From Candidatus Bathyarchaeia archaeon (GTDB lineage: Archaea; Thermoproteota; Bathyarchaeia; Bathyarchaeales; Bathycorpusculaceae), in contig JBEKKK010000001.1 in the NCBI GenBank assembly GCA_050010755.1, positions 704,001 to 768,000 on the forward strand: a stretch of 64,000 bases of DNA, written 5' to 3'. The translations under genes were made by a program, and so were the position numbers. Below, in pieces: positions 2,596 through 41,278 of the stretch (its first letter is position 1; every line of letters begins with the position of its first letter). Under the pieces are notes generated by a model. It was given only the letters and a program-made list of their open reading frames with translations, was not told the DNA's origin and did no database searches.

Positions 2596-4532
2596 CCATG
2601 GGGTCTTGCCTTTTTTTCTTTCGGGAGGTTCCCCGTTTTCTCAAGATCGTCTGCAACGTTTTTCAGGCCGAGTTGCTCCAGCTTCTTCCGCGGTATTAAA
2701 CCAGTTTTGACGTTCCATCCACGTGTTCTGTAATACTCATCCAGCATCGTTTCGAGCTCTACTTTTTGTCCTCTGCATGGCCCGTCTGGGCTTGGTTCTT
2801 CGGTAAACCTTGCCGGCAGTTTATCGTCTTTGCGGGACAAGCCTTCGCGAATGTTGTATGCCCTCTGGAGATTGACTATGCGTTCTCCGGCCTTTCTCAA
2901 GGATTTCTCGGTGGCTTTCATCCCTGTCGCGGCTCCGACGGCATCTGCGAGATCCTTGAAGTAAAAGATTGGTGGGTAAGCGTATCCTCCAGTGAGGCAA
3001 AGCCCTAGCGAGCTCACGACGGCTGCAAAATCCTCGCAAACCTTGACCATCACTCCCTTGTACGTTTCGTCCAGCCTGTCTGCCATTTCGGGCAGATACT
3101 GCTTGCCAAAACGTTTCCCAACAGCCTCTTCAAACCCTATCTCGTCGAGAAAAGCGGAGGCGCGCAAATGATCTGCCCCCCTCGTTGAGACTGCGTGTGC
3201 AAGCCCCATCGACTTCTGTGCTCTCCCGTCCTGGGCGGGAATGTCCATTCCTTTAACATGCATAGCGTATTTTTCCGCGCCGCGATCAAGCTGATCCGCA
3301 ACTCTCTTTGTTCCTTCGGCCAAGAGATTGCCTATGCCTTCTCGGAACGTGATCTTTCTTATCAGTTCCAGAGCAAGGTCTTTGTCCCCCCACTCGAAGG
3401 CAATGCCTCCCGTGTCTGCCTTGCTGATTATCTTTTTCTCGTAGAGTTCCATCATGAACGCTATTACGCCGCCGGTTGAAATGGTGTCGATGCCGTAGAG
3501 GTTGCAGAGGACGTGCGCCTCTATTATCGAATCGAGATCGTCGTTTCCAATTCGGCTTCCGAAAGCGCATAGCGTTTCATATTCTGGATGATCGAGGATC
3601 ATTCCCTTGAAGCGGCCCGTTTTGACTCTGATGACATTCTTGCACGCAAGCCTGCATCCGAAGCATGCCTTGTCAGCGATTTTGTATTCTTTAACAAGCA
3701 CTTCGCCGCTGATCTTGTCAGCCGTTGGGCAGACTCCTGTCTGAAAGTTTCTGGTTGGAAACCTTCCGATCTCGTTCATCGCTCCGACTAGAATCGTTGT
3801 GCCGTACTTTCTGACTTCAGGCACGAAGGGGTCCGCTCTGATTCTCTTATCTGCCTCTTTGACGAGCGCGGTAAAACGTTTCGGATCTGCGATTTCCACA
3901 CGGAGACTTCCTTTCAAGGCGAGGGCTTTCAGGTTCTTTGAGCCCATGACTGCGCCTAGTCCCGACCGTGCAGCAAGACGGAAACGGTCGGTGACTATTC
4001 CGGCGTAGCGAACAAGGTTTTCCCCGCCTTGGCCTATGCAAGCCACTTGAGTTTTCTGACCGTGGTCTTGGCATATTATCGTCATAGTTTCCTCAGTGTT
4101 TTTTCCCCAAAGGTTCCCTGCGTCTCGAATCTGTACCTCACCGTCTTCTACGTAGACGTATACAGGCTTGGAGGCACGTCCTTGGATGATGATGGCGTCA
4201 TAGCCGACGCGTTTCATTTCAGGTCCGAAGCTTCCTCCAGAATTTGCTCCTCCCAGGATGTTGGTCAGCGGGCTCTTGCCACCGACCTCGTACCTTCCTG
4301 ACTCTGGCCACGTCGTGCCAGATAGAGGCCCGACTGCAAATACTATGCGGTTCTCTGGTCCAAAAGGGTCTGTTTCTGGACTGGTTTCGTTGTAAAGAAT
4401 ATTCGTGCAGAACCCTGTGCCGCCCAGGAACTTCTCAGCATCCTCAGGGGACAAGTCTTGCCTGCTTACCTTTCCTCCTGTCAAATCTATTCGGAGGATT
4501 TTCCCCGTGTACCCCTTGTACTTCAGTGCCAC
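2592..4532 (-). CDS. Tungsten aldehyde:ferredoxin oxidoreductase family protein (paralog 2)
   Basis: GYTGKILRIDL, KSPLT, GAVMGSKNLKA, CFGCRLAC, PEYET, GIDTIS, RGADH. Start moved to GTG 4532 to avoid overlap with the upstream gene (ORF track start 4601). Confidence 0.95.
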   Translation of the reverse strand: MALKYKGYTGKILRIDLTGGKVSRQDLSPEDAEKFLGGTGFCTNILYNETSPETDPFGPENRIVFAVGPLSGTTWPESGRYEVGGKSPLTNILGGANSGGSFGPEMKRVGYDAIIIQGRASKPVYVYVEDGEVQIRDAGNLWGKNTEETMTIICQDHGQKTQVACIGQGGENLVRYAGIVTDRFRLAARSGLGAVMGSKNLKALALKGSLRVEIADPKRFTALVKEADKRIRADPFVPEVRKYGTTILVGAMNEIGRFPTRNFQTGVCPTADKISGEVLVKEYKIADKACFGCRLACKNVIRVKTGRFKGMILDHPEYETLCAFGSRIGNDDLDSIIEAHVLCNLYGIDTISTGGVIAFMMELYEKKIISKADTGGIAFEWGDKDLALELIRKITFREGIGNLLAEGTKRVADQLDRGAEKYAMHVKGMDIPAQDGRAQKSMGLAHAVSTRGADHLRASAFLDEIGFEEAVGKRFGKQYLPEMADRLDETYKGVMVKVCEDFAAVVSSLGLCLTGGYAYPPIFYFKDLADAVGAATGMKATEKSLRKAGERIVNLQRAYNIREGLSRKDDKLPARFTEEPSPDGPCRGQKVELETMLDEYYRTRGWNVKTGLIPRKKLEQLGLKNVADDLEKTGNLPKEKKARPHG

Positions 4533-4537
4533 GCGGG

Positions 4538-5635
4538 TCAGCTCCTGAACTTTATAGCTTGCCGAGGACAAACGGAGTAGCAAAGACCACAGCTGAGACA
4601 TTTACGTTTGTGTGAGACTATCTTTCCATCACTCAGAGTCAATGCTTGATAGGGGCAGAGATTTACACAAAGTCCACACAAGGTGCAGGTTTCATGATTG
4701 ATTTGAGGGTGCAGTCTTTTCTTGCTTTCCCTCTTTTGTTTCTGCAGATTTTTTAGTGCGACCCCGCGCAGCTCCTGAATTGTCTTATAGCCCTTAAGCT
4801 CCATGAATTCAACGAGCTCATTTTCTATGCGATCAAAGATTTTCAAGCCATGGAGGATGGGCGCACTGCACAGTTCAACACAACTGGCGCCTGCCATAAT
4901 CATTTCAACGGCGTCTTGGCCGCTCGAAATTCCGCCTATGCCTATTACCGGTATCTTCACTCGCGCAGCTATTTCAGCAACGCATTTCACTGCCAATGGG
5001 TGAATAGCGGACCCGGAGAGCCATCCTTCGCCATCACGAGTGCCGAGATAGGGTTTTCCAGTTTCGACATCAATCGCCAACACGGGACTAGTAGAATCGA
5101 TAGCTGACACGGCGTCGGCCCCAAATTTTTCGGTCTTGACCGCTATTCTCAGAAGATTAAGCCAATTCGCGCTCACCTTAGCTATGACGGGAATCTTCGC
5201 CGCGGACTTGGCGGCTTTAACAGTCGGCAAAATCTGATTCGCATCGTAAGTGACTGTTTCGATGAAATCTGCCCCAGCCTCTTCCACCATCGGAGCGATT
5301 TTTGCTGCTTCTTTTGCCGTGAATCCGATGCTTGCGATTATGGGCACTCCGAGGCGTTTCACCGCTGGTATTTCATGAGTAATCCATGCTCGAAGAGGAA
5401 GATCGGACCACTTTTCGGCGTTGATCAACGTGTCCACACCTATCTTTGCAATGTTAGGAGAGGGGTTTTTGGCCGCTATGAGCCTGATCGTTTTTGTGGT
5501 GACAGCGCCAAAACCCGCTCTTACTGCGCGTTCCAAGGTCTCGGCGTCGCGTCCGAACGGTCCAGCAGCGAGAACTATAGGGTTTGTCAGGTTTACTCCA
5601 CACAACGAAACGGACGTTCGAACTGTTCTTGCCAT
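4538..5635 (-). CDS. Dihydroorotate/dihydropyrimidine dehydrogenase (PreA-like) FMN TIM barrel with C-terminal 2x[4Fe-4S] domain
   Basis: NPIVLAAGP, GFGAVTTKT, GWLSG..IHP, IPVIGIGGI, CTLCGLCVNLCP and CLSCGLCYSVCP; likely ATG 5635. Confidence 0.85.
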   Translation of the reverse strand: MARTVRTSVSLCGVNLTNPIVLAAGPFGRDAETLERAVRAGFGAVTTKTIRLIAAKNPSPNIAKIGVDTLINAEKWSDLPLRAWITHEIPAVKRLGVPIIASIGFTAKEAAKIAPMVEEAGADFIETVTYDANQILPTVKAAKSAAKIPVIAKVSANWLNLLRIAVKTEKFGADAVSAIDSTSPVLAIDVETGKPYLGTRDGEGWLSGSAIHPLAVKCVAEIAARVKIPVIGIGGISSGQDAVEMIMAGASCVELCSAPILHGLKIFDRIENELVEFMELKGYKTIQELRGVALKNLQKQKRESKKRLHPQINHETCTLCGLCVNLCPYQALTLSDGKIVSHKRKCLSCGLCYSVCPRQAIKFRS

Positions 5636-12770: not shown

Positions 12771-13309
12771 CCAGCAGTATCCTCCTTCTCCTTGCCCTTC
12801 TTGTCCATCTGAATCAGATCTCCAAGGGTCATGTCCCGACCTGAAGCCCTGCCCAGTTTCGCCTGCGGGACTTTCTCTTCCTTGGCTGGAACGATTAGCT
12901 TGATTTTCAAAGCGTGCTCGAGCATCGTTGCAAGTCTGTTGTCCGGCGTCATCTTTCCAGTTTCAATTTTTCGCAGAAGCGACACTTTCTCGTTTATTTT
13001 CTTCCCCAATTCCTCGTGAGACAGCCCGAGTTTCTCTCTGGCTTGCCTTATTTTCAAATCGAAGTTCTCCACGAGTTCCAAGCTTGTGTCCACTTTCGGA
13101 GGCTGCGGCTTCTTGGTCTGAATCATCAGAGGCCTAGGCTTCGTCCCAGGCCTCAGACTTGTAACGCGCTGTTTAGGTTCCTCGTAGTATGGCTTTCCAA
13201 GCTTAGAGCACTCGATGCATACCGTTAGCTTTGCCCCTTCGATGATGACTTTTAGGGGTTTTCCGTTGATTCTGCGCCCACAGACTTCACATCGCAATTG
13301 TCCTTCCAC
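12755..13309 (-). CDS. mbf1: Archaeal multiprotein bridging factor aMBF1
   Basis: N-terminal CEVCG..VC..C Zn ribbon, HTH IRQAREKLGLS..IETG, TLGD motif. Confidence 0.93.
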   Translation of the reverse strand: MEGQLRCEVCGRRINGKPLKVIIEGAKLTVCIECSKLGKPYYEEPKQRVTSLRPGTKPRPLMIQTKKPQPPKVDTSLELVENFDLKIRQAREKLGLSHEELGKKINEKVSLLRKIETGKMTPDNRLATMLEHALKIKLIVPAKEEKVPQAKLGRASGRDMTLGDLIQMDKKGKEKEDTAGRRQS

Positions 13310-13384
13310 CTGAACTGTTTTTATTATCCATTTTATTATTCTAGTGATGTTTATAGTTGTCGAAACGGAATTCGGCCTTTGCTG

Positions 13385-13864
13385 GTGACAGGTTTGGAAG
13401 ATTCATTGAGAAGAGTTAGGAGCGTTGCTGATTATCAGTTCGGCAAGGGAGTTGGCAGGGTACTGTTCCCCGACGAGGTGAAGATCGTTTTTTCTAGGAA
13501 CACGGGCCGAATCCGCTACGTCTACCTTGAGGGTAAACGGCTTGGAACGATGCGGCCGACAGACGGCTTCTTTTCGTTGAGTATTTACGGAGCGAAAAGA
13601 GTTGTTGATGGTGGACAATCTGCGAGGTGTTTTGTTACTGTTCGTAGTGACGTTGCGAAGTTCATAGCTGAGGGTGGCGACGTTTTTGCTGCGCACATCG
13701 TGTCGGCTGATGACGAGGTTCGCGCTAGAGACGAAATCATCGTGCTCGACGAAGAGGGCGAGGTCTTGGCAGTTGGGCGGGCTGCACTTTCGGGTGAAGA
13801 AATGAAAGCTTTTAAGCGCGGCATCGCCGTGAAAGTTCGGCGCGGTTGTCTAGAGGAAGGTTAA
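13385..13864 (+). CDS. PUA-domain RNA-binding protein
   Basis: ADYQFG, SRNTGRIRYV, VFAAHI, LAVGRA, AVKVRRG; likely GTG 13385. Confidence 0.85.
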   Translation: MTGLEDSLRRVRSVADYQFGKGVGRVLFPDEVKIVFSRNTGRIRYVYLEGKRLGTMRPTDGFFSLSIYGAKRVVDGGQSARCFVTVRSDVAKFIAEGGDVFAAHIVSADDEVRARDEIIVLDEEGEVLAVGRAALSGEEMKAFKRGIAVKVRRGCLEEG

Positions 13865-16466: not shown

Positions 16467-18434
16467 TTAGCCGTAGATTGAAACTCGGCAAAGACCTTTC
16501 TTTTCCAAGTCTTCTGCAATATCGGTAATCCCTAACTCTGTCAATTTCTCTTTTGTAGGTATTCCCCTGTCCAATTCCCAACCTCTTTCGTCGTAATACT
16601 CATCAAGAATCTCATGGACGTCGTTCCGGTTGAGAACCTTTTTGCCATAGTAATCTTTCATTTTGACCAACCCGTCAGGCGTCTTTCTCGGCTTAAGCCA
16701 TATTTCGGGAATCACGTCGTTTTTTCTTTCAAATCCTTCTCTGACATTCAAAACTTTAAGCAAGTTATGAACAAGCTCACCTGCTTTCTTGAGTTCTCTA
16801 GCATTAGTTTGAATCCCGGTTGCTGCTGAGTAGGCTTCGGCAAGAATGTCTATGCTCAAGATTCCTAGTACTGCATAGATCGTGCATATGCCTAAGGAAT
16901 TATAAACTGCGTAGGCATCCTCTGCATGTCTGGCGAGTCTGCCAGCGCTGAATCCCAGAGGATTTGACGGATTAAAAATCCTTTTCAAGGCGTCAGTATC
17001 TACACCCATCTTCTTGCAGTCTTTCCGAATCACATCTATTGATTGTAAAGGATTAATGCTCGCTGAATGAGCAGATGCACTGTGTGCCCCGCGAGGATGG
17101 ACAATTTGAGTGAGGGATATTGCATCAAATGATCTGAATCGTGCATCGTATATCGAGTCTGCACCCTTGACTTCTCCGCGACCTTGCAGGTATTCAGTGC
17201 TTGAGTCTATGCCAAGTGTCTCAGAAGTCGTTTTCCATCCATCTGCCAAAATATCTCCGAATCCCTCCTTATGGCTTATCATATCCGCCAATAGAACGTA
17301 AGTGTTCAAGTTTCTCTTCAGTTCTAGGCCACCAGTTTGTTCTCTGTTAATCTTGCCTTGTTCAAAGACTCTAGTTACAAAATCTACTAAACCAGAGAAT
17401 GTCATGCAGCATAGGCCGTATCTATTCAGTATATCCATTAATTCAATTGCATTTCTGTAATCAGCAATTTCCAATCTATTGCCCATCGCAGCTATCACAT
17501 CGAAGTGTCCTGTTTGCGTGCCATGTCCCTTGAATTTCCCACTTTTTATTTCAAATGAAGCTGCACAAGGCAGCATGCAAGCTGTACAAGCTAATATCTT
17601 TGTTTTTACTTTTGCAAAATTTTGGAACCCATAAAATTTATCATATGTCTCTTTATCCCAATTTCCTTCATTCATGGTCTCTATGTAAGTTTCCCATCCT
17701 GCCATCGTACCTAGGTCTTTCATTTTCTCGAAGGAAGGATGATTCAGGATTTGTCTGCGTATGCGGCCCACTACATTCATGAATTTTTGCTTTTCTCGTA
17801 TGTTTACACGTCCAGTGCCTCTGACAACGATTGCTTTGAGTCTTTTGGAGCCCATCACTGCTCCAAGCCCGCCTCTGCCTAAATGGTAGTTTTTGTCGAC
17901 TAGGCACAGCGAAAAACTCACTAAATTCTCGCCAGCGGCACCAATTGCTATTATTCCATTCTTGCCTTCATTGGTCAACTCATCGGAAACTTCATAGCTG
18001 TCTTTTCTTCCCCACAAATGTTCGGCATCGCAAATGCTGATTCGATCATCTATAATCTCCAAATACACTGGATTCTCCGATTTTCCAGTTATTATTAACT
18101 GATCGTAGCCTGCACTTTTGAGCATGAAACCAAATCTTCTGCTACCACTTACAGCTCCTGCAATCGTCCCCGTGAGAGGGAATTTTGTTGTTGCCACTAC
18201 CTTTGCAGCAGATGGGAACATTGTTCCTACAAGGGGACCGGCGCTGATAATTATAGGGTTGATTGCTGATAGAGGAGTTTCTTCGGCTTTTATCAGGGAG
18301 TAAGCTACTCTCAGGTCCAGCCCCCAACCTCCAATAAATTTTTTCGCCAAAGACAAGTCGAGGGATTTCATATCGATCTGTTTGGTTGCAAGATCCACGA
18401 AAACCGTGGTGCCAGCAAATCCGTGACATACCAT
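16467..18434 (-). CDS. Aldehyde:ferredoxin oxidoreductase family protein (paralog 3, divergent active-site motifs)
   Basis: FIGGWG, GRGGLGAVMGSKRLKA, CTACMLPC, HPRGAH, YYDERGW; visibly more AT-rich than neighbours. Confidence 0.9.
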   Translation of the reverse strand: MVCHGFAGTTVFVDLATKQIDMKSLDLSLAKKFIGGWGLDLRVAYSLIKAEETPLSAINPIIISAGPLVGTMFPSAAKVVATTKFPLTGTIAGAVSGSRRFGFMLKSAGYDQLIITGKSENPVYLEIIDDRISICDAEHLWGRKDSYEVSDELTNEGKNGIIAIGAAGENLVSFSLCLVDKNYHLGRGGLGAVMGSKRLKAIVVRGTGRVNIREKQKFMNVVGRIRRQILNHPSFEKMKDLGTMAGWETYIETMNEGNWDKETYDKFYGFQNFAKVKTKILACTACMLPCAASFEIKSGKFKGHGTQTGHFDVIAAMGNRLEIADYRNAIELMDILNRYGLCCMTFSGLVDFVTRVFEQGKINREQTGGLELKRNLNTYVLLADMISHKEGFGDILADGWKTTSETLGIDSSTEYLQGRGEVKGADSIYDARFRSFDAISLTQIVHPRGAHSASAHSASINPLQSIDVIRKDCKKMGVDTDALKRIFNPSNPLGFSAGRLARHAEDAYAVYNSLGICTIYAVLGILSIDILAEAYSAATGIQTNARELKKAGELVHNLLKVLNVREGFERKNDVIPEIWLKPRKTPDGLVKMKDYYGKKVLNRNDVHEILDEYYDERGWELDRGIPTKEKLTELGITDIAEDLEKKGLCRVSIYG

Positions 18435-19958: not shown

Positions 19959-20267
19959 ATTTACCGGTAAATTTCATATGGATTCAAACGCCAATCTCCT
20001 TGGTGTGTTTTGGTTGGACAAGTACCGTTCGATTGGTCTTGGATCTTAGACCTGTCATTTTTCTGTAGGTTTATTGCATTCATGATCTGACCCAAGCATC
20101 TGAATTCTTGTATAAACCATTTTGCGGTTGTGTTTTCTTCGAAAATTCGGTGTATTCAATCTCTCGTCAGATTAGCGTGCGCTCTTGAAAAACATAGTTC
20201 CATCGCTTCTGGTAGTGTCTTTAATACTAGTTCAAGCCTCAGTGAGGATATAAGTGGAGGGGTTGGC

Positions 20268-23200
20268 TTGGGTAATCTTGCTGAGGAATTTGATAAAAGT
20301 TGGCAGGAGGAATCGAGAAGACATGCGGCGACCACAATCCGTAACGAAGTTGACGACTGGTGCGAATCCTACAGGTCCACAGCAGAGAAAAGGTGGCTTT
20401 ATGAATTACTACAGAATGCGATAGACACTGCAACGGAAAACATGATTCCCAGCTTGGACATAAAGGTTGAATTCAAAGGTGGAAACCTTTCGGTTAAGCA
20501 TAACGGAGGAGGTTTTCTTCTCAAAGAAGTCATTGCTCTTGTATCTGGTGGGACATCAAAGTACTTTGGCAGAGAAACTCTTGGAAGGTTCGGCAAAGGG
20601 TTTCTCGTAACTCATATTTTGTCCAAAGAAGTTGAAGTTGAGAGTTCGATAACTCATTTGGGAACCAAAAGGCCTTTTCAAATCAAACTAGATAGAAGAG
20701 GGGACGAAAAACTCATCGAGCAAAACATCAATGATTGCAAAGACCAGCTAGATGTTGTTGTAAATCGAGTCGAGCCTGTTAACCTCGACGAAACGACCTT
20801 TACTTACATAAACGCAGCAGTGGAGGAAGCCAACAATTGCAAGGTTCTCTGTCGTCCGTTGCCTTACGTTATGATTTTTAATCCCATAATTGAGAATATC
20901 GACGTAGATTTTGAGCTTGAAGATGGGCGCTTCAACGTTTTTTGGAAAAAAAGGAATCAGAACAATTTTGATTATAACGGGCAACAATTCGAAAAAATTG
21001 GCATATCGACCGCCACCGGCGAACTTACCTGCATTAAGATAAAAAGCACTAAATTGGAACTCGCAGTGCTATTGGCAACTTCAGGGGCTTCACCTGAAGT
21101 TATGGACACTAGATGCTTCCCTAGTTTTTACTGTAACCTTCCACTGTGTGATTCGGATTCAGCTAGCCTTTCTTTTGCGATTAACAGTTCGAGCTTCGGA
21201 ATTGACACAAACCGCTCTTTCATCAATGTCTCCGCTGAAAACTCCGAAATTCTCGAGGAGCTTCCAACATTGCTAAATTCTTTATTAGATTATCTTGTTA
21301 GTGCAGGGGCACTGAACTTGCACCTGCTAGGACATGTTGACTTTTCAAGACTTTCGGAAGAAAGAAAAACCTACTTACTGAAACAGTTTTTCTATCTTAC
21401 AGAGCAACTAAGTTCTAAACCGATCCTTCGTTGCAAAAATGAAAACATCGCTCCCAACTCATCACAGATACCTTCAGGTGATTATCTAGGCCAAAACCTT
21501 CCTAAATTGACACCTTTGATATATGGTCTTCTAACCCAGTGTCACGCAAATGTGCCTGAGCTGTACGAAGAATGGGAAACAATATCTAAAGAATGGGCAT
21601 TTCTAGGAGTCAATCTACAGATTCGCACCCTAGAAAATCTGTTGGAAAGTCTGCAAGCGGACATTAATCTTGTTCAACCAGGATCGGTGAAAGCGTATGT
21701 GATTTCATTAATAGAGGCTCTTTATTCGGGTCAACAAATCACAAAAAGCATTCCTCAAGAAATCTCACAGAGGAAAATATTGCTAAATCAAAAACTGCAG
21801 CTTGTTGCTCCTCAAGACGCTAACATCGACTTGCAAGTAGATGAGAAATTAAAGGAAATAGCCTCTGGAGTGGGATGGGATATAAAAGGGCAGCTTCTGG
21901 ATGGTGAGATTCTCAAAACTCTGTCACTGAAAGATTTTATCAGTAATACACTCTGCTCAGGCAGAGAAACCTTCACAAACGATCTTGTCTTGCGAAAACT
22001 GTGGGATTCCTATGTTTCTACCAGATGGAAAGAAAGTCAGAAACAAGTGACATACAAAGATGCTTTGATGGGTCTGATAATTTGGCTAACGAAAAACAAA
22101 AGCTCAGATGAAATAAGAAGTTTCGTGAATCCTGACCTGCTGCCCATTCTTTGCAGCGATGGCATCTTTAGATGCAACGAAGAAATGTCGCGATATCCTT
22201 TTTTGTGGTCTGTGGAACAGCTGGAAGATGAACTGCGGCAGTTTGTTAACCTGATCGGTTCAAGATGGATCATGGCAAACGAATACGTGACTTTGTTGCC
22301 GCCGGATGAGCGTACCAAGTTTTTTGAAGCGCTGTCGTCAATCAGCGTTTCTTTTGAAACTCCAATTTTTCAATGGTCCGATAAGCAACTTAATGAAAAG
22401 GAAGCAGACGCTCTAGCCAGCTCGACAACTTTTCCAACTGGAGCCAAGGTTGATGCGTGGGACCTTATAGGCTTGCAAGACATGACTTCCGCAGTCGCTG
22501 GAGGAAGGGATGCAGATCTCGCTTCAAAGGTCTTGGCATTTGTTCTTACCTACGTTATCAATCACGATGACTCATGGCTTAGTCCAACCTTAATCGGCGA
22601 TAAGGCAATCTACAGCTGTTATTGGCTAGCTGTTTTGAAAACGAAGGATTGGGTTCCGTCAATAGATGGAAAACATTTGGAATCTCTTAACAGAGAGAGT
22701 TGGGAACGGGTCCTCAACATCCCTGATCTGGAGCTTAACGGTAACATTGTGAGTTTCTTAGGAAAGCATTTTGGCATTAATTTGCCAGGGATTCTCGCTC
22801 TAAAATTGAAGGTCATGAATCCGCTCGATTATCGAACTATGATTATAGACAAGTTAATCACTCTTTCATCGGATGATGCATCAAAGATCGCAGCAGAAGT
22901 AGAGAAACGCCTAAATGATATTGAAAATGTCCGAAACAATCAAAAACTTGGTCGGATTGTGGAAGAAATAAGCAAACGTATTTTTGAGAAACGAGGATTC
23001 AAAACGAAATGGACAGGAATAGGTTCTGACTTTAGATTAGTCGAGCCTGATGATATTGGTTCATTGAAATTGCAGTCCTCGGAGAATAGCCAAGATTCCG
23101 GAGTACTGATAGAAGTAAAGGCAACTGCTAGAGAAATTACCCGCATGACAATGGTGCAAGCGAAAAAAGCAATTCAAACCGGAACAAGATACATTTTGTG

Positions 23201-23525
23201 CGTATTGGACGTAAGCGGAATTACAATCCCAGATGTTAAGGGCGAAGAACAAGACCCCAAAACAGTAGAGTTGGTTGCGAAGTCATTGAAATTCGTCACG
23301 GACGTCGGAAGCAAGATCGACGAAGCTGTCAAGAAAGCTGACGGCTTTCAAGATCATCAGGGAGAGTTGAAAGACGTGGAAATTCCTCCAGGCATTAAGA
23401 TACGTTTTGAGGAGACCGATATTAGGCTTGGCGTAATGAAAAAAATATGGGGCGAAGGATATTCATTGGAAGAGATTGTGCCCTATTGCGAAAGCATTGT
23501 CAGTACCAGATCGACAGGTACATAG
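20268..23525 (+). CDS. Sacsin-like GHKL ATPase fused to C-terminal DUF3883/NOV-like PD-(D/E)xK nuclease
   Basis: ELLQNAID, HNGGGF, GRFGKGF (Bergerat fold); C-terminal G..VE, GSDF, IEVKAT, YILCV. Likely TTG 20268 after GGAGG (ORF track start 20130). Confidence 0.8.
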   Translation: MGNLAEEFDKSWQEESRRHAATTIRNEVDDWCESYRSTAEKRWLYELLQNAIDTATENMIPSLDIKVEFKGGNLSVKHNGGGFLLKEVIALVSGGTSKYFGRETLGRFGKGFLVTHILSKEVEVESSITHLGTKRPFQIKLDRRGDEKLIEQNINDCKDQLDVVVNRVEPVNLDETTFTYINAAVEEANNCKVLCRPLPYVMIFNPIIENIDVDFELEDGRFNVFWKKRNQNNFDYNGQQFEKIGISTATGELTCIKIKSTKLELAVLLATSGASPEVMDTRCFPSFYCNLPLCDSDSASLSFAINSSSFGIDTNRSFINVSAENSEILEELPTLLNSLLDYLVSAGALNLHLLGHVDFSRLSEERKTYLLKQFFYLTEQLSSKPILRCKNENIAPNSSQIPSGDYLGQNLPKLTPLIYGLLTQCHANVPELYEEWETISKEWAFLGVNLQIRTLENLLESLQADINLVQPGSVKAYVISLIEALYSGQQITKSIPQEISQRKILLNQKLQLVAPQDANIDLQVDEKLKEIASGVGWDIKGQLLDGEILKTLSLKDFISNTLCSGRETFTNDLVLRKLWDSYVSTRWKESQKQVTYKDALMGLIIWLTKNKSSDEIRSFVNPDLLPILCSDGIFRCNEEMSRYPFLWSVEQLEDELRQFVNLIGSRWIMANEYVTLLPPDERTKFFEALSSISVSFETPIFQWSDKQLNEKEADALASSTTFPTGAKVDAWDLIGLQDMTSAVAGGRDADLASKVLAFVLTYVINHDDSWLSPTLIGDKAIYSCYWLAVLKTKDWVPSIDGKHLESLNRESWERVLNIPDLELNGNIVSFLGKHFGINLPGILALKLKVMNPLDYRTMIIDKLITLSSDDASKIAAEVEKRLNDIENVRNNQKLGRIVEEISKRIFEKRGFKTKWTGIGSDFRLVEPDDIGSLKLQSSENSQDSGVLIEVKATAREITRMTMVQAKKAIQTGTRYILCVLDVSGITIPDVKGEEQDPKTVELVAKSLKFVTDVGSKIDEAVKKADGFQDHQGELKDVEIPPGIKIRFEETDIRLGVMKKIWGEGYSLEEIVPYCESIVSTRSTGT

Positions 23526-23678: not shown

Positions 23679-25028
23679 CTAATTCTTGGGCAATAGGTCT
23701 TTTAGGATTTGTATTTTTGAGTTTGCCAATCTATCAACGATCAGTTCTATGTTTTTGTCATCATCTATTGCCTTCCTCACATAGCCTAGCCATTCGTTCA
23801 TGAACAAAGCAACATGACCCCGCCGCAATATGTACCATTGATCTGGCTTTAGTTCCTCAAGTTTTTTTACAGTCACACTTCTACAGAAGTCGCAATTGTG
23901 AGGCAATGCTCCAATATTTTCGTATATTTCCTTCATGACATCCCAAGGCCTATGTATTAACATGGTCGGATGAAGCCATTTGCCATAAGGCGCATACTTG
24001 CCAAAACTGTGTTCAATATCATAGTTTGTGAAAGAACTGGAAACAATGTCGAAACCAGCGAGAGGAGAGACAAAGCTTTGGCAATTATTTTCAAGAACAA
24101 CACATGCTCTATTTTTGAACGTTTTCGAGAAAAATTCTAGATTCGCCATAAAATCTCGATAATTGTCTCTCTCAGTTTGAAGTTCCTTATTGGTTAGGTC
24201 TAGATATTTGAATTTGAGCACTACTAAGGATTCCTTCGCATTTTCGGCGATGTACCTAAGAGCCTTGTCGAGCAATGACCAGCTAGCTAAGGCACTGCTT
24301 TTGAACAGAAAATAGGTAGCACAATGTTTCTTTCCTCTGGCCAGTTCTTTCGCGTTATCATTCATCTTTTGGGCTATCTCCAGCATTTCCTCTGAATCTA
24401 CCAGAGGAGTTGGAGGCAGAACAGCATCTGCATCATAATCTAAGTCACATTGTAGGAACGCTCGGATTATGTCAAGTCTATTTTGATTTGACTGGCTATT
24501 TTCCTCAGCAAGTCCTCGCCAAAATTCTCGATGATGTCTGTCGCGTTTGGATTCAAAGGATTTGTAAGCCTTCTTCTTCTCCCCTTTGTATCCAGACTCT
24601 TTTTGTAGTTTTTCAATTTCTTTGATGTAGTCAAGAATTACTTTTGGAGTGTATTGATTTTTCTTGAAGCCGTCCATTCTCGGTAGATAATAGAGGTATT
24701 CGAGACTAGGGTCGATAAGAAGAAGCTGTTGTTCGAAGAAGAGGCTATACTTGTCCTTGCGTACGTTCATCAATACATCCTTTGGTGTCTTCGGATGCAA
24801 TCTCCATAGAGCTTGACGCAAATCGACGAATCTTACTGTAGATGTTGTTAGTCTGTCGCTGACATGTTGCTCTCTCAAATTGATTAGAAAGTCTAGTTCA
24901 TCTGAATCTTGCAATTGTACACAGAAATTGGGCGTAGATACAATCTTTTGTCCAATTTTCGTTCTGGTTGTTCGGGCATAGCGATCACGACTCTCTGGTT
25001 TGACTTCTATTTTTAACTCGCTATCCAT
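23679..25028 (-). CDS. Hypothetical protein, probable divergent TGT-like TIM barrel with Zn site
   Basis: N-terminal ARTT..IG...STPNF like TGT ARTG...TP.F; LLIDP; GFDIVS; C-terminal H-x-C-x2-C...RRGH. Confidence 0.55.
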   Translation of the reverse strand: MDSELKIEVKPESRDRYARTTRTKIGQKIVSTPNFCVQLQDSDELDFLINLREQHVSDRLTTSTVRFVDLRQALWRLHPKTPKDVLMNVRKDKYSLFFEQQLLLIDPSLEYLYYLPRMDGFKKNQYTPKVILDYIKEIEKLQKESGYKGEKKKAYKSFESKRDRHHREFWRGLAEENSQSNQNRLDIIRAFLQCDLDYDADAVLPPTPLVDSEEMLEIAQKMNDNAKELARGKKHCATYFLFKSSALASWSLLDKALRYIAENAKESLVVLKFKYLDLTNKELQTERDNYRDFMANLEFFSKTFKNRACVVLENNCQSFVSPLAGFDIVSSSFTNYDIEHSFGKYAPYGKWLHPTMLIHRPWDVMKEIYENIGALPHNCDFCRSVTVKKLEELKPDQWYILRRGHVALFMNEWLGYVRKAIDDDKNIELIVDRLANSKIQILKDLLPKN

Positions 25029-25486
25029 TCGGAATCCTCCTTTTTCTCTACGAATTTATGTAAAGCGCTGAGAAAATTCCCCAAGTCTTTCATGTTTATC
25101 ATTACCCCTCCTTTGATGTGCGGGACTCGGCACTCATCTAATTCTTTCTCCTGTAAGTAGATGAATTTGCCTTCGTTGTTCTCCAACTTGTAGAAGGTAT
25201 AGGTTTTGTCAGTGTAGACAATGCTTTGAACGTCGGTTTCGTGAACAATCTTGCCGTTTTTGTAGTAGATGAACAGATTGCCTCGCTGGATTTTGTAGGC
25301 TTCTCCTATAGCGACCAGGACATCAAGATGTTTGCTAATGGTCATTCTATTGAAGTTAGTAGCAGAGGCAATTTGAGTAACTGTAATGCCTCCTTTGTCG
25401 TTTAGTCTGAGTATTTCAAGAATTACGTTGCGGGTATAGAAGTCTCTTTCTTGTGGAGACAAAACATGGATTTCTTCAGGAGACAA
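25013..25486 (-). CDS. Winged-helix regulator with C-terminal PUR/PC4-like domain
   Basis: GITVTQIA..NRMTISKHLDVL wHTH; KTYTFYKLENNEGKFIYLQE...GGVMI..DL.NF..AL; overlaps the downstream gene by 16 bp. Confidence 0.65.
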   Translation of the reverse strand: MSPEEIHVLSPQERDFYTRNVILEILRLNDKGGITVTQIASATNFNRMTISKHLDVLVAIGEAYKIQRGNLFIYYKNGKIVHETDVQSIVYTDKTYTFYKLENNEGKFIYLQEKELDECRVPHIKGGVMINMKDLGNFLSALHKFVEKKEDSEWIAS

Positions 25487-25554
25487 TACTGTTCTCGGAA
25501 CGATTATGCGACTTCTTATCTCAAATTCCCTCCCTAGGTTCTGTTCAGCATTCT

Positions 25555-25588
25555 TGCTAAGCGAATATGCTAAGCATATCTGCTAATC
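25555..25588. promoter_or_regulatory. Putative operator: three TGCTAA(G/T)C repeats at 13-bp period with central near-palindrome ATATGCTAAGCATAT
   Basis: Copies at 25555, 25568, 25581 between the divergent wHTH and uvrD genes. Confidence 0.55.
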
Positions 25589-25713
25589 AATATTTAACAC
25601 TTTTGCTTAGAACCCATATATCGTCGAGGCGGCAGCACCCGCTACAGTATTTGTTTGCTGTAATATTCATATAAGACGCCATGTTAGAGGTAGAACAATG
25701 AGGATCACCGTTA

Positions 25714-27588
25714 ATGTCCATACCTTTTGAGGAACTTGATCCGAAGCAAAAACAAATCGTCCGACGCGCAACTAGTCCGCTTCTTGTTCTTGCTGGGCCG
25801 GGAACTGGTAAGACAGAAGTGTTGACACATCGAATTGCCTATCTTAATGCTCAAATGGGTGTCCCGCCAAATCGAATACTAGCCGTCACCTTCAGTAGGA
25901 AAGCCGCAAGTGAAATGCTTGATCGCCTGAGAAAATTTCCAGGACTTGAAACAACAGAGTTTCATGTCTTAACCCTTCATGCAGAGTCGCTGAAACTACT
26001 GAACGAGATTGGAAAACGTCGCAAGTTTCTTGTTGCAGATGATGAGGCACGGCTACTAATTAAAGACGCTGCTGAGGATCTGAATCTTGGACTAGACTGG
26101 AGAAACTTAAGCTCATTAGAAAAAAAAGTGAAACTAGCAAAAGCAAACAACCTCCTTCCTGGAGATATTCGAGATCAACCCTTGCAGCGTTTCTACCGAC
26201 GATACGAAGAACTCCTTGACTTTAACAACGCGATAGATCTTGATGGACTGGTTGTGAAAGTCACGAGAGCCTTGCTCTCAGAATCGCCTTCTGATGTTTT
26301 TGAAGGTCATCTCCTAGTCGATGAGTATCAAGACATAAACCAAGCCGAATACAAACTAATCCATATCTTGGCTAGGGAGGCCGAAAGTCTTTTCGTAGTG
26401 GGTGATGACGATCAGAGCATTTATGGTTGGCGTGGCGCGGATCCTAGCATAATCCGCAATTTTGAAGGAGCCTTCCAAAATGGACGCATCGAAATTCTTG
26501 AGCAGTCGCATCGATGCCCGGGGCACATACTTGCAGGTGCTTATGCGATAGTATCAAGAGATCCTGATTGCATAAAAAAGACTGTTCGTTCTTCGAAAGG
26601 TGATGGCAATCCTATTAATGTCCTGCTCTCAAAGAGCTGGAGTGTTGAGGCTATCTGGATAGCAAATTGGATAAAAGAATGTGTTTCCAAGGGTTCCGTT
26701 AAGCCCAGTGACATCGCAGTACTGACAAAAACACCAAGTTTAGCCGAGTTACTTGTGGACCAGCTCAGAATTGCAGAAATTGATACGGTGTACTGGAAGT
26801 CAGGAGGATTTTTTTCTGATAGGAATATCTTAGACATACTTGCATATATACGCCTAGTTGTCGACAAAGATGATAACTTGGCTTTGCGGAGATGTTTGAT
26901 GACCACAACATCAGGCATCGGAAACGTAGCCGACACAAGATTGCGCTTGCTGGCAGAAAGGAATGAATGCAGTCTATGGGAAGTCGTCGTTGATTACATG
27001 AAGTTTGTAGAACTTCGCAGGTGGCGCGGTTCATTGGGAAAATTCGTGGCAAGGTTCACGCAGATGGAAGAACGGTTCTCCGAACTTAGGGTGTATCAAA
27101 TTGTCCAATCTATCGCAAAAGAAATAGGTACGGACCGATCAGCTAACATAAAGAAGTTGCAAGACTTTGCCAAGGCATTGCCGGAAGACTTCGAATTAGA
27201 AGATTTTCTTGCAGAGATTAACAAAAACAGAGGCGTAGACCTTACTGGCGGGAGTCCAGAACCAGAGACGAACGCAGATGCTGTAGCTATAATGAGCATG
27301 CATTCTTCCAAGGGACTTGGATACAAAATTATCTTCATTCTTGGAATGGATGAGGAACTATTACCGGATATGAATCAAAATGAATGTGAGCAAAGGAGAC
27401 TATGCTACGTCGCAATGACAAGGGCAAAGGACGAACTTTTCTTATGCCATGCCAAAATGCGGAAAGGGCCTGCAGCAAAGGGGCTTAGCTTCTACAAACC
27501 ATCAAGATTCATTAGCAACATACCAAAGAGCCACATGAAAATCATTAACAATGAATACTTCAGACAAGGATCAGCTGGTGCAACATAA
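25714..27588 (+). CDS. UvrD/Rep/PcrA-family SF1A helicase
   Basis: AGPGTGKT, VTFS, VDEYQD, VGDDDQSIYGWRGA, MHSSKGL, RRLCYVAMTRAK, SRF. Confidence 0.93.
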   Translation: MSIPFEELDPKQKQIVRRATSPLLVLAGPGTGKTEVLTHRIAYLNAQMGVPPNRILAVTFSRKAASEMLDRLRKFPGLETTEFHVLTLHAESLKLLNEIGKRRKFLVADDEARLLIKDAAEDLNLGLDWRNLSSLEKKVKLAKANNLLPGDIRDQPLQRFYRRYEELLDFNNAIDLDGLVVKVTRALLSESPSDVFEGHLLVDEYQDINQAEYKLIHILAREAESLFVVGDDDQSIYGWRGADPSIIRNFEGAFQNGRIEILEQSHRCPGHILAGAYAIVSRDPDCIKKTVRSSKGDGNPINVLLSKSWSVEAIWIANWIKECVSKGSVKPSDIAVLTKTPSLAELLVDQLRIAEIDTVYWKSGGFFSDRNILDILAYIRLVVDKDDNLALRRCLMTTTSGIGNVADTRLRLLAERNECSLWEVVVDYMKFVELRRWRGSLGKFVARFTQMEERFSELRVYQIVQSIAKEIGTDRSANIKKLQDFAKALPEDFELEDFLAEINKNRGVDLTGGSPEPETNADAVAIMSMHSSKGLGYKIIFILGMDEELLPDMNQNECEQRRLCYVAMTRAKDELFLCHAKMRKGPAAKGLSFYKPSRFISNIPKSHMKIINNEYFRQGSAGAT

Positions 27589-27825: not shown

Positions 27826-28812
27826 TCAACAGCTAAAATATGGATGCCCATTTATCAATCTAAACGTAAGAACCTTAATTCCCAATTCTGCAAGTACTCC
27901 TCTGAAGTTTTTGCCTAGAACATCCGGAAATACTGCCACGAGCTGAGGGTTAATGCCTAACCTGATTGAGTTGAAGAAGAGTTGTCCTATTGCTGCGTAG
28001 CAACTCTGACGCTCTGTATCAGTCTTAACCTCGTATAACGTTTTTACCTCGTTCTTTTCACCAAGAATGTATAGGTCCATCCCATATCTGTTACCAACCT
28101 TCGATCCCTCAGAGATGAGCTTTTCTTCTAGACCCTTAACGATAATGCCATGATTGCATTTGGCTTCTATTTCACTATTGGAGCTGTAACGTTTTATTCC
28201 TGTAAATTCTTCTCTGAAAGCATCGAACGTTCGATCGGGTATGTGTAAATCAGACTTTTGATGTAAAGGTGCAATATATTTGATTCGTGCAACTTCATGC
28301 ACAAAGACACTCATTTGTTGCGGGAATTCTTTGCTCCCAAGCGACGCGACAAGTGCTAGCCTAGCTATATTATTGCCCTCTCGAACAGATACCCATTCGC
28401 CAATGAAATTATTAACGAAAAGCGACTTTCCAATGCCTTTTCTTCCGCCACCGATTATTCCTCTGTGCAATAGAAATAGTCCCTCCATTTCGTCCCCTAC
28501 TACGGCACCAGAAATCCTTCGGTTAAGGTTCTTAGGCAAATTGACCTCAACGACAATGCTATGAGGATACTTTTTGCCCCATTGAGGCTCTTGGAGACCA
28601 AAGGAGTTCCAGAACCTATCTTCTTCGTCCTTTGCTGTCCACCAAAAACCAAGATCTCTATTCCAGTAAGTCTCTCGAAACTGATGCCAACCTTTGCCAC
28701 CAATCATAATTCTACCATGCTTATCCAGAATAGACTTCAGTCTCTTTTCGAGTTGATCTTGAGCCTTTCTAACATCCGTCTCCTTTTCGATTATTCTTAG
28801 CATTTTTCCCAC
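27826..28812 (-). CDS. Hypothetical protein with C-terminal PD-(D/E)xK nuclease domain
   Basis: H..IV..L, MDLYI...LYEVKTD, YAAIGQL. Confidence 0.65.
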   Translation of the reverse strand: MGKMLRIIEKETDVRKAQDQLEKRLKSILDKHGRIMIGGKGWHQFRETYWNRDLGFWWTAKDEEDRFWNSFGLQEPQWGKKYPHSIVVEVNLPKNLNRRISGAVVGDEMEGLFLLHRGIIGGGRKGIGKSLFVNNFIGEWVSVREGNNIARLALVASLGSKEFPQQMSVFVHEVARIKYIAPLHQKSDLHIPDRTFDAFREEFTGIKRYSSNSEIEAKCNHGIIVKGLEEKLISEGSKVGNRYGMDLYILGEKNEVKTLYEVKTDTERQSCYAAIGQLFFNSIRLGINPQLVAVFPDVLGKNFRGVLAELGIKVLTFRLINGHPYFSC

Positions 28813-39448: not shown

Positions 39449-41278
39449 ATGGCAGGATGGACTGGAAAATTCTTACGCGTAAATCTAGGCAAAGGCAAGG
39501 CAGTGATAGAAGCGTACGGGTCAAGCATGGCCCGCGACTTTCTGGGCGGTCGAGGATTCGCAGTCAAAATTCTCTGGGATGAACTCAGACGCGGAATCGA
39601 TCCGCTCTCGCCTGAAAACAAACTTGTATTCGCTGCTGGCCCGTTGACAGGTTTTTCCCTGCCAAGTAGCGGCAAACTCGTCGTGGCCTCCAAAAGTCCG
39701 CTAACCGGTGGCTACGGAGACGGAAACATCGGCACCCTTGCCGCCGTGCAGATGCGAAAGGCAGGCTATGACGCGGTTATCATCGAGGGCAGAGCGAAGA
39801 AGCCGATGATCTTGGTTGTTCGAGACGGGTCAACGGAGTTTCTTGAGACAAAAGATTTGTGGGAGTTGAACTCATTTGAAACTCAGAAGAGACTGAGCAG
39901 CCTTTACGGACGTACAGCTGGCATTCTCTGCATCGGCCAGGCTGGAGAGAATCTTGTCAAATACGCGACAATTGTTTCCCAAGAAGGCCGTTCGGGCGGC
40001 CGACCCGGCATGGGAGCCGTTATGGGTTCTAAAGTATTGAAAGCAGTTGTTTTCATAGGCTCATATGATTTGCAGGCAGCCTATCCCAAAGAAATGCAGG
40101 AACTGGGCGCCGAGGCTTACCGAGAAGTGTTGACGAGGCCCAACTATGCTTTCTGGAAGAGGCAGGGCACGATGAGCACGATAGAATGGAGTCAAGAAAA
40201 CGCTGTTCTCCCCACTTGCAACTATAAAGAAGGCGTTTTCGACATGGCAGCTGCCATCGGCGGTTTTGCTATGGAAAAAATCAAGGTTTCAAACCGAGGT
40301 TGTCCACAGTGCAACATGACCTGCGGCAACATCGTGAAGGATTCGGACAGAAAGGAATCAGAGCTTGACTACGAAAACGTTGCGATGCTCGGTTCAAACA
40401 TCGGACTGGGCGACCTGAAACAGGTTGCAGCCCTGAACAGGGTTGCCGACGAGTACGGCTTAGACACTATCTCTCTTGGAAATGTTCTCGGCTTCGCTAT
40501 GGAGGCCTCTGAAAAAGGATTGATTGACCAGAGCGTTCCTTGGGGCGGGTTTAAGACGACCAAGGCGCTGATAAAAGATATCGCCTACAGGAAAGGGCCG
40601 CTGGGCGACGCACTCGCTGAGGGCGTCCGCTCTGCATCGGAAGCTGTGGGCGGAGGCTCAGATCACTGGGCCATGCACGTGAAAGGACTGGAGATTTCAG
40701 CCTACGACTGCCATGCTGCACCAGCCATGGCCTTGGCGTACGGGACCTGTTCCATCGGTGCTCATCACAAAGACGCGTGGGCGATTTCCTGGGAGGTCAA
40801 AGTCGGTCGAGAAGGCTATAACGCTCAGAAGGTGGACAAGGTCATTGAGCTACAGCGCATTCGCGGCGGGGTCTTCGAATGTCTCACCGTCTGTCGGCTT
40901 CCGTGGATTGAGGTAGGATTAGAACTGGAATGGTACACGAGGCTTCTGCGCGCAGCAACAGGCATGGAAATGTCTTGGGATGAACTGAACACTGTTGCAG
41001 ACAGAGTTTTCAACCTGACGCGGGCTTTTTGGATAAGGGAGTACGGTAACAAGTGGGGCAGCCACATGGACGTTCCCCCTGCTCGATGGTTCGAAGATCC
41101 GCTCACTAAGGGTGCATTCAAAGGCAGAACACTCGACAGAACCAAGTACGACAACATGCTGCAAATGTACTATAGAAAGAGAGGCTGGGACGAAAGAGGC
41201 GTGCCTAGAAAATCCACCCTGAAAAGCCTCGGACTGGATAATATTTCAGGCCAGCTCGGGGTGAAACTGACAAAGTAG
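39449..41278 (+). CDS. Tungsten aldehyde:ferredoxin oxidoreductase family protein (paralog 4, FOR-like)
   Basis: KSPLTGGYGDGN, GRPGMGAVMGSK, CPQCNMTC, ELDYEN, DEYGLDTIS, GAHHKDAW. Confidence 0.95.
   Translation: MAGWTGKFLRVNLGKGKAVIEAYGSSMARDFLGGRGFAVKILWDELRRGIDPLSPENKLVFAAGPLTGFSLPSSGKLVVASKSPLTGGYGDGNIGTLAAVQMRKAGYDAVIIEGRAKKPMILVVRDGSTEFLETKDLWELNSFETQKRLSSLYGRTAGILCIGQAGENLVKYATIVSQEGRSGGRPGMGAVMGSKVLKAVVFIGSYDLQAAYPKEMQELGAEAYREVLTRPNYAFWKRQGTMSTIEWSQENAVLPTCNYKEGVFDMAAAIGGFAMEKIKVSNRGCPQCNMTCGNIVKDSDRKESELDYENVAMLGSNIGLGDLKQVAALNRVADEYGLDTISLGNVLGFAMEASEKGLIDQSVPWGGFKTTKALIKDIAYRKGPLGDALAEGVRSASEAVGGGSDHWAMHVKGLEISAYDCHAAPAMALAYGTCSIGAHHKDAWAISWEVKVGREGYNAQKVDKVIELQRIRGGVFECLTVCRLPWIEVGLELEWYTRLLRAATGMEMSWDELNTVADRVFNLTRAFWIREYGNKWGSHMDVPPARWFEDPLTKGAFKGRTLDRTKYDNMLQMYYRKRGWDERGVPRKSTLKSLGLDNISGQLGVKLTK

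Follow-up and report, generated by a model that had tools for sequence, protein, structure and literature searches.

A winged-helix regulator paired with a TGT-fold protein in Bathyarchaeia-type archaea: a candidate autorepressed two-gene cassette

We analysed a stretch of 64,000 nucleotides, hereafter the window, from a Candidatus Bathyarchaeia archaeon (GenBank assembly GCA_050010755.1, contig JBEKKK010000001.1, positions 704,001 to 768,000 of the forward strand); coordinates below count from its first letter. The minus strand carries a pair of open reading frames (ORFs), a regulator gene and, downstream of it, a gene for a divergent protein of the tRNA-guanine transglycosylase (TGT) superfamily. 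A preliminary description, made from the letters alone, had called them an overlapping two-gene module, and the two ORFs do overlap, by 16 nt. The gene pair and the elements in front of it are as follows.

23679–25028, minus strand: TGT-like enzyme gene, an ORF of 449 codons for a divergent TGT-superfamily TIM barrel with a zinc subdomain
25013–25486, minus strand: regulator gene, an ORF for 157 residues counted from a TTG start, with an HTH_11-type winged helix and a PUR/Whirly-like repeat
25487–25519, minus strand: in-frame extension of 11 codons that matches the N-termini of related regulators (MRSRIxVPRTxL)
25528–25534, minus strand: Shine–Dalgarno-like GGGAGGG, 8 nt upstream of an ATA codon; a putative ribosome-binding element
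25542–25588, minus strand: predicted operator, four copies of a palindromic core at 13-bp spacing (GATTAGCA, GCTTAGCA, GCTTAGCA, GCTGAACA)
25590–25597, minus strand: TATA-like box TTAAATAT; the first repeat follows directly downstream

The host, an uncultured archaeon from peat, has a genome of 2.19 Mb in eight contigs that is 93% complete. The genes of the window are archaeal in type (TFIIE-alpha, aTrm56, NAC and a ThrRS with an archaeal editing domain), and the nearest relatives of the enzyme and regulator pair are found in Bathyarchaeia/Thermoproteota metagenome-assembled genomes.

The AlphaFold2 model of the 449-residue protein (pLDDT 87.6, pTM 0.89) is a (beta/alpha)8 barrel with an N-terminal beta cap, which is the topology of TGT, and has a helical insert of about 80 residues after strand 3. 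The best 50 matches of the model in a Foldseek search of the PDB are all TGT structures, with E-values from 6e-9 to 9e-8, and a VIA structure comparison with archaeosine TGT (ArcTGT; 1iq8_A) gives a Z score of 26.7 and a root-mean-square deviation of 3.1 Å over 326 residues. Both the barrel and the TGT-like start that had been suspected from the sequence are thereby recovered in the model and in profile comparisons. When the PDB is searched with a profile of 28 family sequences, 1iq8 comes up at E 5e-6; the match runs over the zinc region and the N-terminal segment, where residues 6–40 of the profile align to 7–41 of the structure. Against 25 reference ArcTGTs drawn from Bathyarchaeia genomes, HHalign in local mode returns a probability of 89% (E 2.3e-6) for the 28-sequence profile and of 95.9% (E 6e-9) for a profile of 126 sequences. 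On the strength of these comparisons, we assign the protein to the TGT superfamily at the level of the fold.

Sequence collections place it less closely. No family was found for the enzyme in Pfam or PADLOC (E up to 0.1 in each) or in PHROGs. No member reaches the cut-off of Pfam PF01702, to which six of the 28 give sub-threshold matches (best E 6.3e-4), and NCBIfam contributes a weak ArcTGT match over the zinc region (E 0.013). Phage TGT-like models match far more weakly than cellular TGT (best E 7.9e-4), and the named phage 'queuine tRNA-ribosyltransferases' compare with the family at E 4e-3 to 8e-2. In the ESM Atlas the closest clusters are archaeal and unnamed, at 0.89, which we take as a lead only; 14% of the members of one cluster at 0.85 carry a TGT assignment.

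Three aspartates are invariant in TGT and DpdA according to the accessible part of a published account, where they serve as acid/base, in base recognition and as nucleophile (PMC10164549). The first appears to be kept. Asp106 lies on the strand 'LLLIDPS' and aligns with the Asp of the 'IMTDSGA' (TDSGAYQ) strand, strand 3, in the 25 ArcTGTs, so that the LLIDP sequence does stand where TGT has DSGG, as had been proposed; it is the counterpart of DpdA Asp95, and the position is Asp in 116 of the 126 relatives. This is not the situation at the other two sites. The strand-4 segment reads D201-x-x-x-P205-P206-x-P208; its C-terminal end, the site of the base-recognition Asp (DpdA Asp130), is without a conserved acidic residue, and a proline-rich PPxP segment replaces the Asp of TGT. 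The nucleophile Asp of the GxDxFD/GCDFFD motif after strand 8 (DpdA Asp256) aligns with Ser330, a position that is Ser in 76, Val in 14 and Ile in 12 of the 126 sequences. Position 331 is acidic (Glu or Asp) in 45 of the 126, which belong to other subfamilies, and is Ser or Thr in the clade of the window. Three subfamilies can be told apart here: GFDIVS[ST]S (n = 68, that of the window), G[AVI]DGFxEP (n = 34) and GFDFFxD (n = 11).

Other residues have become fixed instead. Conservation is highest at Asp327 (95%), Lys272 (94%), Asp106 (92%) and Asn223 (90%), followed by Pro107, His405 and Cys382. Lys272 is placed on strand 6 and Asp327 on strand 8; the invariant Asp327 is equivalent to the leading Asp of GxDxFD. 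Together with the insert after strand 3, the invariant Lys272, Asp327 and Asn223 are new relative to TGT. The C-terminal HxCxxC...H site noted in the preliminary description (His377-x-Cys379-x-x-Cys382...His405) aligns with the CxCxxC...H zinc ligands of ArcTGT. Among the 126 sequences Cys or His occupies position 377 in 102, with Cys in 83 and hence in most relatives, while Cys379 is found in 94, Cys382 in 111 and His405 in 113. We regard D106, E110, N223, K272, K274, E313, D327, S330–S332 and H377/C379/C382/H405 as the key residues of the enzyme.

Judged from these alignments, the active site has been rebuilt: the first Asp and the zinc site are kept, and the base-recognition and nucleophile Asp residues are lost in the clade of the window. 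We read this as a scaffold that may have been retained for binding a macromolecule while its chemistry changed. Hydrolytic base excision via Asp106 would be plausible, as would a mechanism based on Lys272. Base exchange is less likely than the preliminary description implied, the base-recognition and nucleophile Asp residues not being conserved in this clade; the protein may instead catalyse a different reaction, of the glycosidase type or another.

The regulator model (pLDDT 83.2) has a winged helix at residues 11–76, then four strands and a helix at residues 85–147. Pfam HTH_11 (PF08279) matches the former at E 1.9e-5, with 24.9 bits against a cut-off of 25, and the same family is precomputed for an identical protein, P0041. 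Many winged helix–turn–helix (wHTH) structures are matched by VIA with Z scores of 10–11.5, and such matches filled the VIA list. We considered Z-DNA binding by this domain and set it aside: Z-alpha heads the comparison (Z 11.5) and is tied to within about one Z unit with domains of the ArsR/MarR type.

For the whole regulator model, the best Foldseek matches are Borrelia Pur-alpha (3nm7), human PURA, repeat III of Drosophila Pur-alpha and PC4 homologues. These have target TM-scores of 0.64–0.82 and root-mean-square deviations of 1.6–2.4 Å over 64–69 columns, at E 5e-3 or weaker, which falls short of the significance line of 1e-3. The ESM Atlas offered no usable named match for the C-terminal part. 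PUR/PC4 is the best available description of the C-terminal domain in the model, at the level of the fold only. Of the earlier proposal that the regulator fuses a wHTH to a beta-beta-beta-alpha PUR/PC4-like domain, the wHTH stands; PUR and PC4 proteins are indeed the best matches of the second domain, at the E-value given, and its topology has to be corrected to beta-beta-beta-beta-alpha.

The start of the regulator deserves comment. Most related regulators are 10–11 residues longer at the N-terminus. The ancestral start position, at 25517–25519 (minus strand), is ATA where the relatives have ATG; the Shine–Dalgarno-like GGGAGGG is spaced to suit it, and the first canonical start is a TTG 11 codons downstream. 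The same ATA is present in contigs assembled from sequencing runs X7 and X8.

On the minus strand the order of elements is the TATA-like box, the four repeats, GGGAGGG, the ATA codon and the TTG start, the box having been called from the archaeal TATA consensus. Exact copies of GCTTAGCA lie at 25555–25562 and 25568–25575 and are the only two in the window; a one-mismatch copy is at 25581–25588. The triple repeat of 13-bp period described earlier at 25555–25588 is therefore present, and a fourth copy, GCTGAACA, with two mismatches, extends it at 25542–25549. The second repeat in minus-strand order falls within a perfect 15-bp palindrome, ATATGCTTAGCATAT. GCTTAGCA is not enriched across the window (37 matches with at most one mismatch against 49 expected), and by a rough estimate the chance of such clustering at a fixed spacing is about 1e-7.

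Conservation of the repeat in related loci makes a stronger argument for a predicted operator than this estimate. The loci L001 and L003 have the identical palindrome, ATGCTTAGCAT, upstream of the regulator and after a TATA-like box, and other clades have ATGTTTAACAT or ATGTG[GC]CACAT in the equivalent place. Related loci carry two to four copies of the 11-bp palindrome between the TATA-like box and the start codon, and in most of them a (C)TTAAAT-type box occupies the equivalent position relative to the palindromes. The recognition helix of the regulator varies with the palindrome: NR-M-T occurs with ATGCTTAGCAT, SR-P-T with ATGTTTAACAT and YR-D-T with ATGTG[GC]CACAT, such that the inner bases are tracked by the residue after the invariant Arg (Met, Pro/Ile and Asp, respectively). 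This co-variation is supportive and not statistical, because the clades are few and related. Taken with the conserved and analogous palindromes, it suggests that the upstream repeat serves the pair as its own operator, as had been supposed. The operator code appears readable, with one helix residue tracking the inner palindrome bases, and the regulatory half is therefore directly testable in vitro.

We fetched 39 loci of the family, eight from genomes and 31 from metagenomes. One of them (L035) is the window's own DNA, and some are duplicates (L005/L048/L049, L042/L043 and L045–L047). A regulator ORF lies directly upstream on the same strand in 29 of the 39, that is, in 28 of the 38 besides L035, usually with an overlap of 4–16 nt. 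Of the remaining ten, four (L002, L006, L036 and L053) start inside the enzyme gene, L047 has half a regulator, and L037, L008, L059, L064 and L065 hold truncated enzyme genes only. Every full-length copy with upstream DNA carries the regulator partner. In a survey of 301 genomes of the class, full-length regulator matches occur in eight genomes and a TGT-like gene is adjacent in all eight. The co-occurrence of the two genes elsewhere, on which their description as a module depended, thus holds wherever it can be judged. No third gene is conserved among the neighbours of the loci.

A divergent pair was seen at L078 (G179:C27, 2148–3959), where a very divergent regulator (E 1e-21) is accompanied by a TGT-like protein of 436 residues (HHalign probability 91%, zinc region only) and adjoined by an IS240-type transposase. 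Members of the family thus exist beyond the hidden Markov model threshold of the survey.

The cassette is accessory, rare, patchy and often decayed. The enzyme is found in eight of the 301 genomes and in two of the 14 genomes of one genus. Broken copies include a split gene (L003), one with two TAG stops (genome G193) and one with a single TAA (genome G214), besides the five truncated genes named above. In contigs of runs X7 and X8, two peat samples from one study, a 2-nt TT insertion behind position 24550 would shift the frame near codon 160; the depth there is about 7–8, and an assembly error is possible. Twenty DNA sequencing runs from peat, wetland and sediment were listed as holders of the sequence, with no RNA run among them. 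Thirty-four pattern matches in viral contigs included no relative, a result that is neutral with respect to a defence role. In the portions of the literature that were accessible to our search, no description of the gene pair was found.

The cassette sits between two genes with links to defence, and the neighbouring features are as follows.

20130–23525, plus strand: TmtA gene (Tiamat defence), 1131 residues; PADLOC match at E 5.5e-92 over residues 52–661
25714–27588, plus strand: UvrD-family helicase; best models GajB and helicases associated with DRT, E 4e-69 to 4e-77
27826–28812, minus strand: protein of 328 residues adjoining the helicase; no family in Pfam, PADLOC, NCBIfam or PHROGs

The TmtA gene is convergent with the TGT-like gene and encodes a sacsin/HSP90-like ATPase at its N-terminus (NCBIfam E 1e-12); the GajB-like helicase gene is divergent from the regulator gene. 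At other loci, where 150 of 205 neighbouring ORFs were scanned, the neighbours include type I restriction-modification, GmrSD with McrBC, DndB with TIR, PLD nucleases and DNA methylases, together with mobile-element genes (IS240/DDE transposases and an integrase). Tiamat was considered as a recurrent partner and rejected: a neighbour of 1173 residues in L004 is unrelated to the TmtA of the window. The defence-island context makes a role in defence or addiction likely.

The preliminary description is confirmed in its observations and supported in part in its interpretation. The best reading is a horizontally mobile, self-contained cassette of Bathyarchaeia-type archaea. We regard it as evenly balanced whether it is, more specifically, an autorepressed mobile two-gene cassette with a defence or addiction effector that attacks the base–sugar bond in nucleic acid. 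The product of the first gene would be a repressor, dimerising probably through its single PUR-like repeat and binding the 11-bp palindromes (ATGCTTAGCAT here). The palindromes are flanked by the TATA box on one side and the start codon on the other, which is the classical position of an archaeal repressor site, and by binding there the protein would prevent transcription of its own operon from being initiated. The second gene would be translationally coupled to the first. Its product would be a zinc-containing TGT barrel with a rebuilt pocket, in which Asp106 is kept and Lys272, Asp327 and Asn223 are gained. The attack on the base–sugar bond would more probably be excision than exchange for 7-deazaguanine. 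The effector would be kept silent by the repressor, whose release may come about when the PUR-like domain binds single-stranded nucleic acid, of the DNA or RNA type.

Winged-helix regulators with a WYL domain (BrxR/CapW type) and AbiEi antitoxins likewise combine an HTH_11-type winged helix with a small beta-rich domain that binds nucleic acid, and autorepress at palindromes in the promoters of defence operons. The regulator described here differs from the wHTH-WYL type in that its predicted sensor is a single PUR/Whirly-like beta-beta-beta-beta-alpha repeat, with no WYL domain, and in that it is tied to one effector family only. Among prokaryotic regulators, the union of a winged helix with one PUR repeat would be a new type.

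A bolder proposal concerns the chemistry, and we advance it tentatively. The effector may represent a new catalytic branch of TGT, an N-glycosidase in which a Lys/Asp pair (Lys272 and Asp327, with Asp106) stands in for the Asp nucleophile, which excises bases from invading or host nucleic acid and which is released by a PUR-type single-strand sensor. Were this so, archaea would have yielded their first described immune effector with a TGT fold. TGT-family barrels insert 7-deazaguanines into tRNA and DNA and, as recently recognised, handle base–protein conjugates; if the enzyme is active, it would carry a new reaction on the TGT fold, with the scaffold and zinc site kept and most of the catalytic set replaced. 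To our knowledge the immune repertoire of Bathyarchaeia-type archaea is almost unknown, and the cassette would join the few modules proposed for defence or addiction that are specific to them.

Several observations weigh against an autorepressed effector acting on nucleic acid. The residue equivalences come from profile alignments and DSSP strand positions with no superposition, and confidence in the alignment of the strand-4 region is low. Because two canonical Asp residues are gone, the protein might lack enzyme activity altogether, or its target might, as with Cap10, be a small molecule or a protein. The PUR-like similarity of the regulator is weak (best Foldseek E 5e-3), and Pfam PUR gives no match. 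The surroundings of the cassette are no clean island, because metabolic genes also lie in the low-GC stretch around it, at 16–30 kb. In addition, L001, L002 and L036 have plain housekeeping neighbours.

Among the alternatives, a toxin–antitoxin system or holoenzyme fares best, although we think it doubtful. The wHTH-PUR protein would then bind the enzyme as well as the operator, either as an AbiEi-like antitoxin or as a subunit that targets nucleic acid. The layout is like that of a type II toxin–antitoxin system, with a DNA-binding first gene, an overlapping second gene and a palindromic predicted operator. The antitoxin-first order, the 4–16-nt overlaps, which suggest coupled translation, the apparently autoregulatory palindromes, the strict one-to-one pairing and the frequent decay of the enzyme gene are all in keeping with it. 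Against it, 449 residues are many for a type II toxin, and the identical features fit a plain repressor–effector operon.

DNA modification in the manner of DpdA is unlikely. A 7-deazaguanine or another base would be inserted at sites chosen by the wHTH-PUR protein, marking self DNA or shielding the mobile element from restriction. DpdA provides the precedent of a TGT paralogue that acts on DNA (PMC10164549), and the two proteins share a TGT-type architecture free of tRNA-binding domains as well as neighbourhoods related to genetic conflict. The TGT fold with its zinc site, a DNA-binding partner that might unwind DNA, and the location in mobile and defence regions also speak for this possibility. 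As far as the accessible part of that account goes, however, DpdA keeps all three Asp residues and needs DpdB and preQ0 genes. The present enzyme lacks two of those residues, which are invariant in TGT and DpdA and not conserved here, and is matched by no PADLOC model up to E 0.1; viral TGT-like models match it far more weakly than cellular TGT. No DpdB-like, ParB-like or restriction partner is conserved. The earlier remark that the window holds no dpd or que genes is borne out by a Pfam scan that covered every one of the 49 non-overlapping ORFs of 110 residues or more, none of which is QueC-, QueD-, QueE- or ParB-like, the E-value cut-offs having differed between scan rounds. No full-length QueC was found in the host genome (G000, 93% complete), which has N-terminal PP-loop fragments only, though a canonical ArcTGT is present.

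It is improbable that the barrel serves a role away from nucleic acid, handling a nucleobase-linked protein or making a small regulatory molecule as Cap10 or TIM-B might. TGT-family barrels are re-used in this way in defence, in so far as the two reports were accessible: Cap10 of type IV CBASS (10.1101/2025.04.06.647259) and TIM-B, the phage P4 Beta protein family (PF14350) proposed as a TGT-related barrel of defence systems (10.64898/2026.10.19.760177). The pocket is remodelled here, as is the surface of Cap10, and TIM-B likewise recurs in small conflict operons. The resemblance goes little further. In the accessible description, Cap10 keeps its nucleophile Asp (D248) and base-reading residues, has lost the zinc site and has Cap9 and a CD-NTase as its partners (10.1101/2025.04.06.647259). 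Our family keeps the zinc subdomain and has no Cap9 partner, and its neighbourhoods show no conserved gene for a CD-NTase, a QueC-like protein or a separate effector. TIM-B, so far as its report was available, is paired with separate toxins, whereas the enzyme here is paired only with the wHTH-PUR regulator. The comparison with the phage Beta family that the preliminary description had suggested revealed no profile relationship: none of the 28 members matches PF14350, and HHalign gives the family a probability of 0.4% against P4 Beta and of 0.2% (E 0.27) against a 22-sequence PF14350 profile.

A motif of the form [IV][LV]S[ST]SF occurs in both the enzyme-family and the TIM-B consensus; it is unexplained and not significant. 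Residues 325–336 of the enzyme, GFDIVS[ST]S[FL]T, resemble 'VLSTSFP' of TIM-B, through either a phosphate-binding loop or chance. The enzyme profile also resembles ManNAc-6-P epimerase (5zkn; 'GFDIVGTTL' against 'GFDIVSSSL') at E 0.15, which is not significant, and this likeness together with the motif common to the TIM-B consensus was rejected as a sign of a phosphate-binding loop.

That the protein is a housekeeping tRNA-modifying paralogue of ArcTGT is very improbable, for although ArcTGT is its closest match in structure and profile, and the barrel, beta cap, zinc subdomain and DSG-strand Asp (D106) are shared with ArcTGT (1iq8) and with bacterial and eukaryotic TGT (PF01702), it lacks the C-terminal tRNA-binding domains (C1/C2/PUA), occurs in so few genomes of the class and there with several copies broken, has a dedicated predicted autorepressor and lies in defence and transposon contexts, and a full-length ArcTGT of 548 residues is encoded by the host genome elsewhere on contig C1.

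A stand-alone protein of 188 residues with TGT_C2 and PUA domains (E 2e-29 and 4e-19) is encoded at 13298–13864 on the plus strand, about 10 kb from the cassette. A type I restriction-modification cluster with HsdS and HsdM lies at 53470–59011 (minus strand), in a second low-GC stretch; its HsdR gene is split into overlapping ORFs at 57335–59011 and 56155–57342. Finally, the 64 kb hold five aldehyde:ferredoxin oxidoreductase paralogues (739–4601, 16467–18434, 39449–41275 and 48026–49894).

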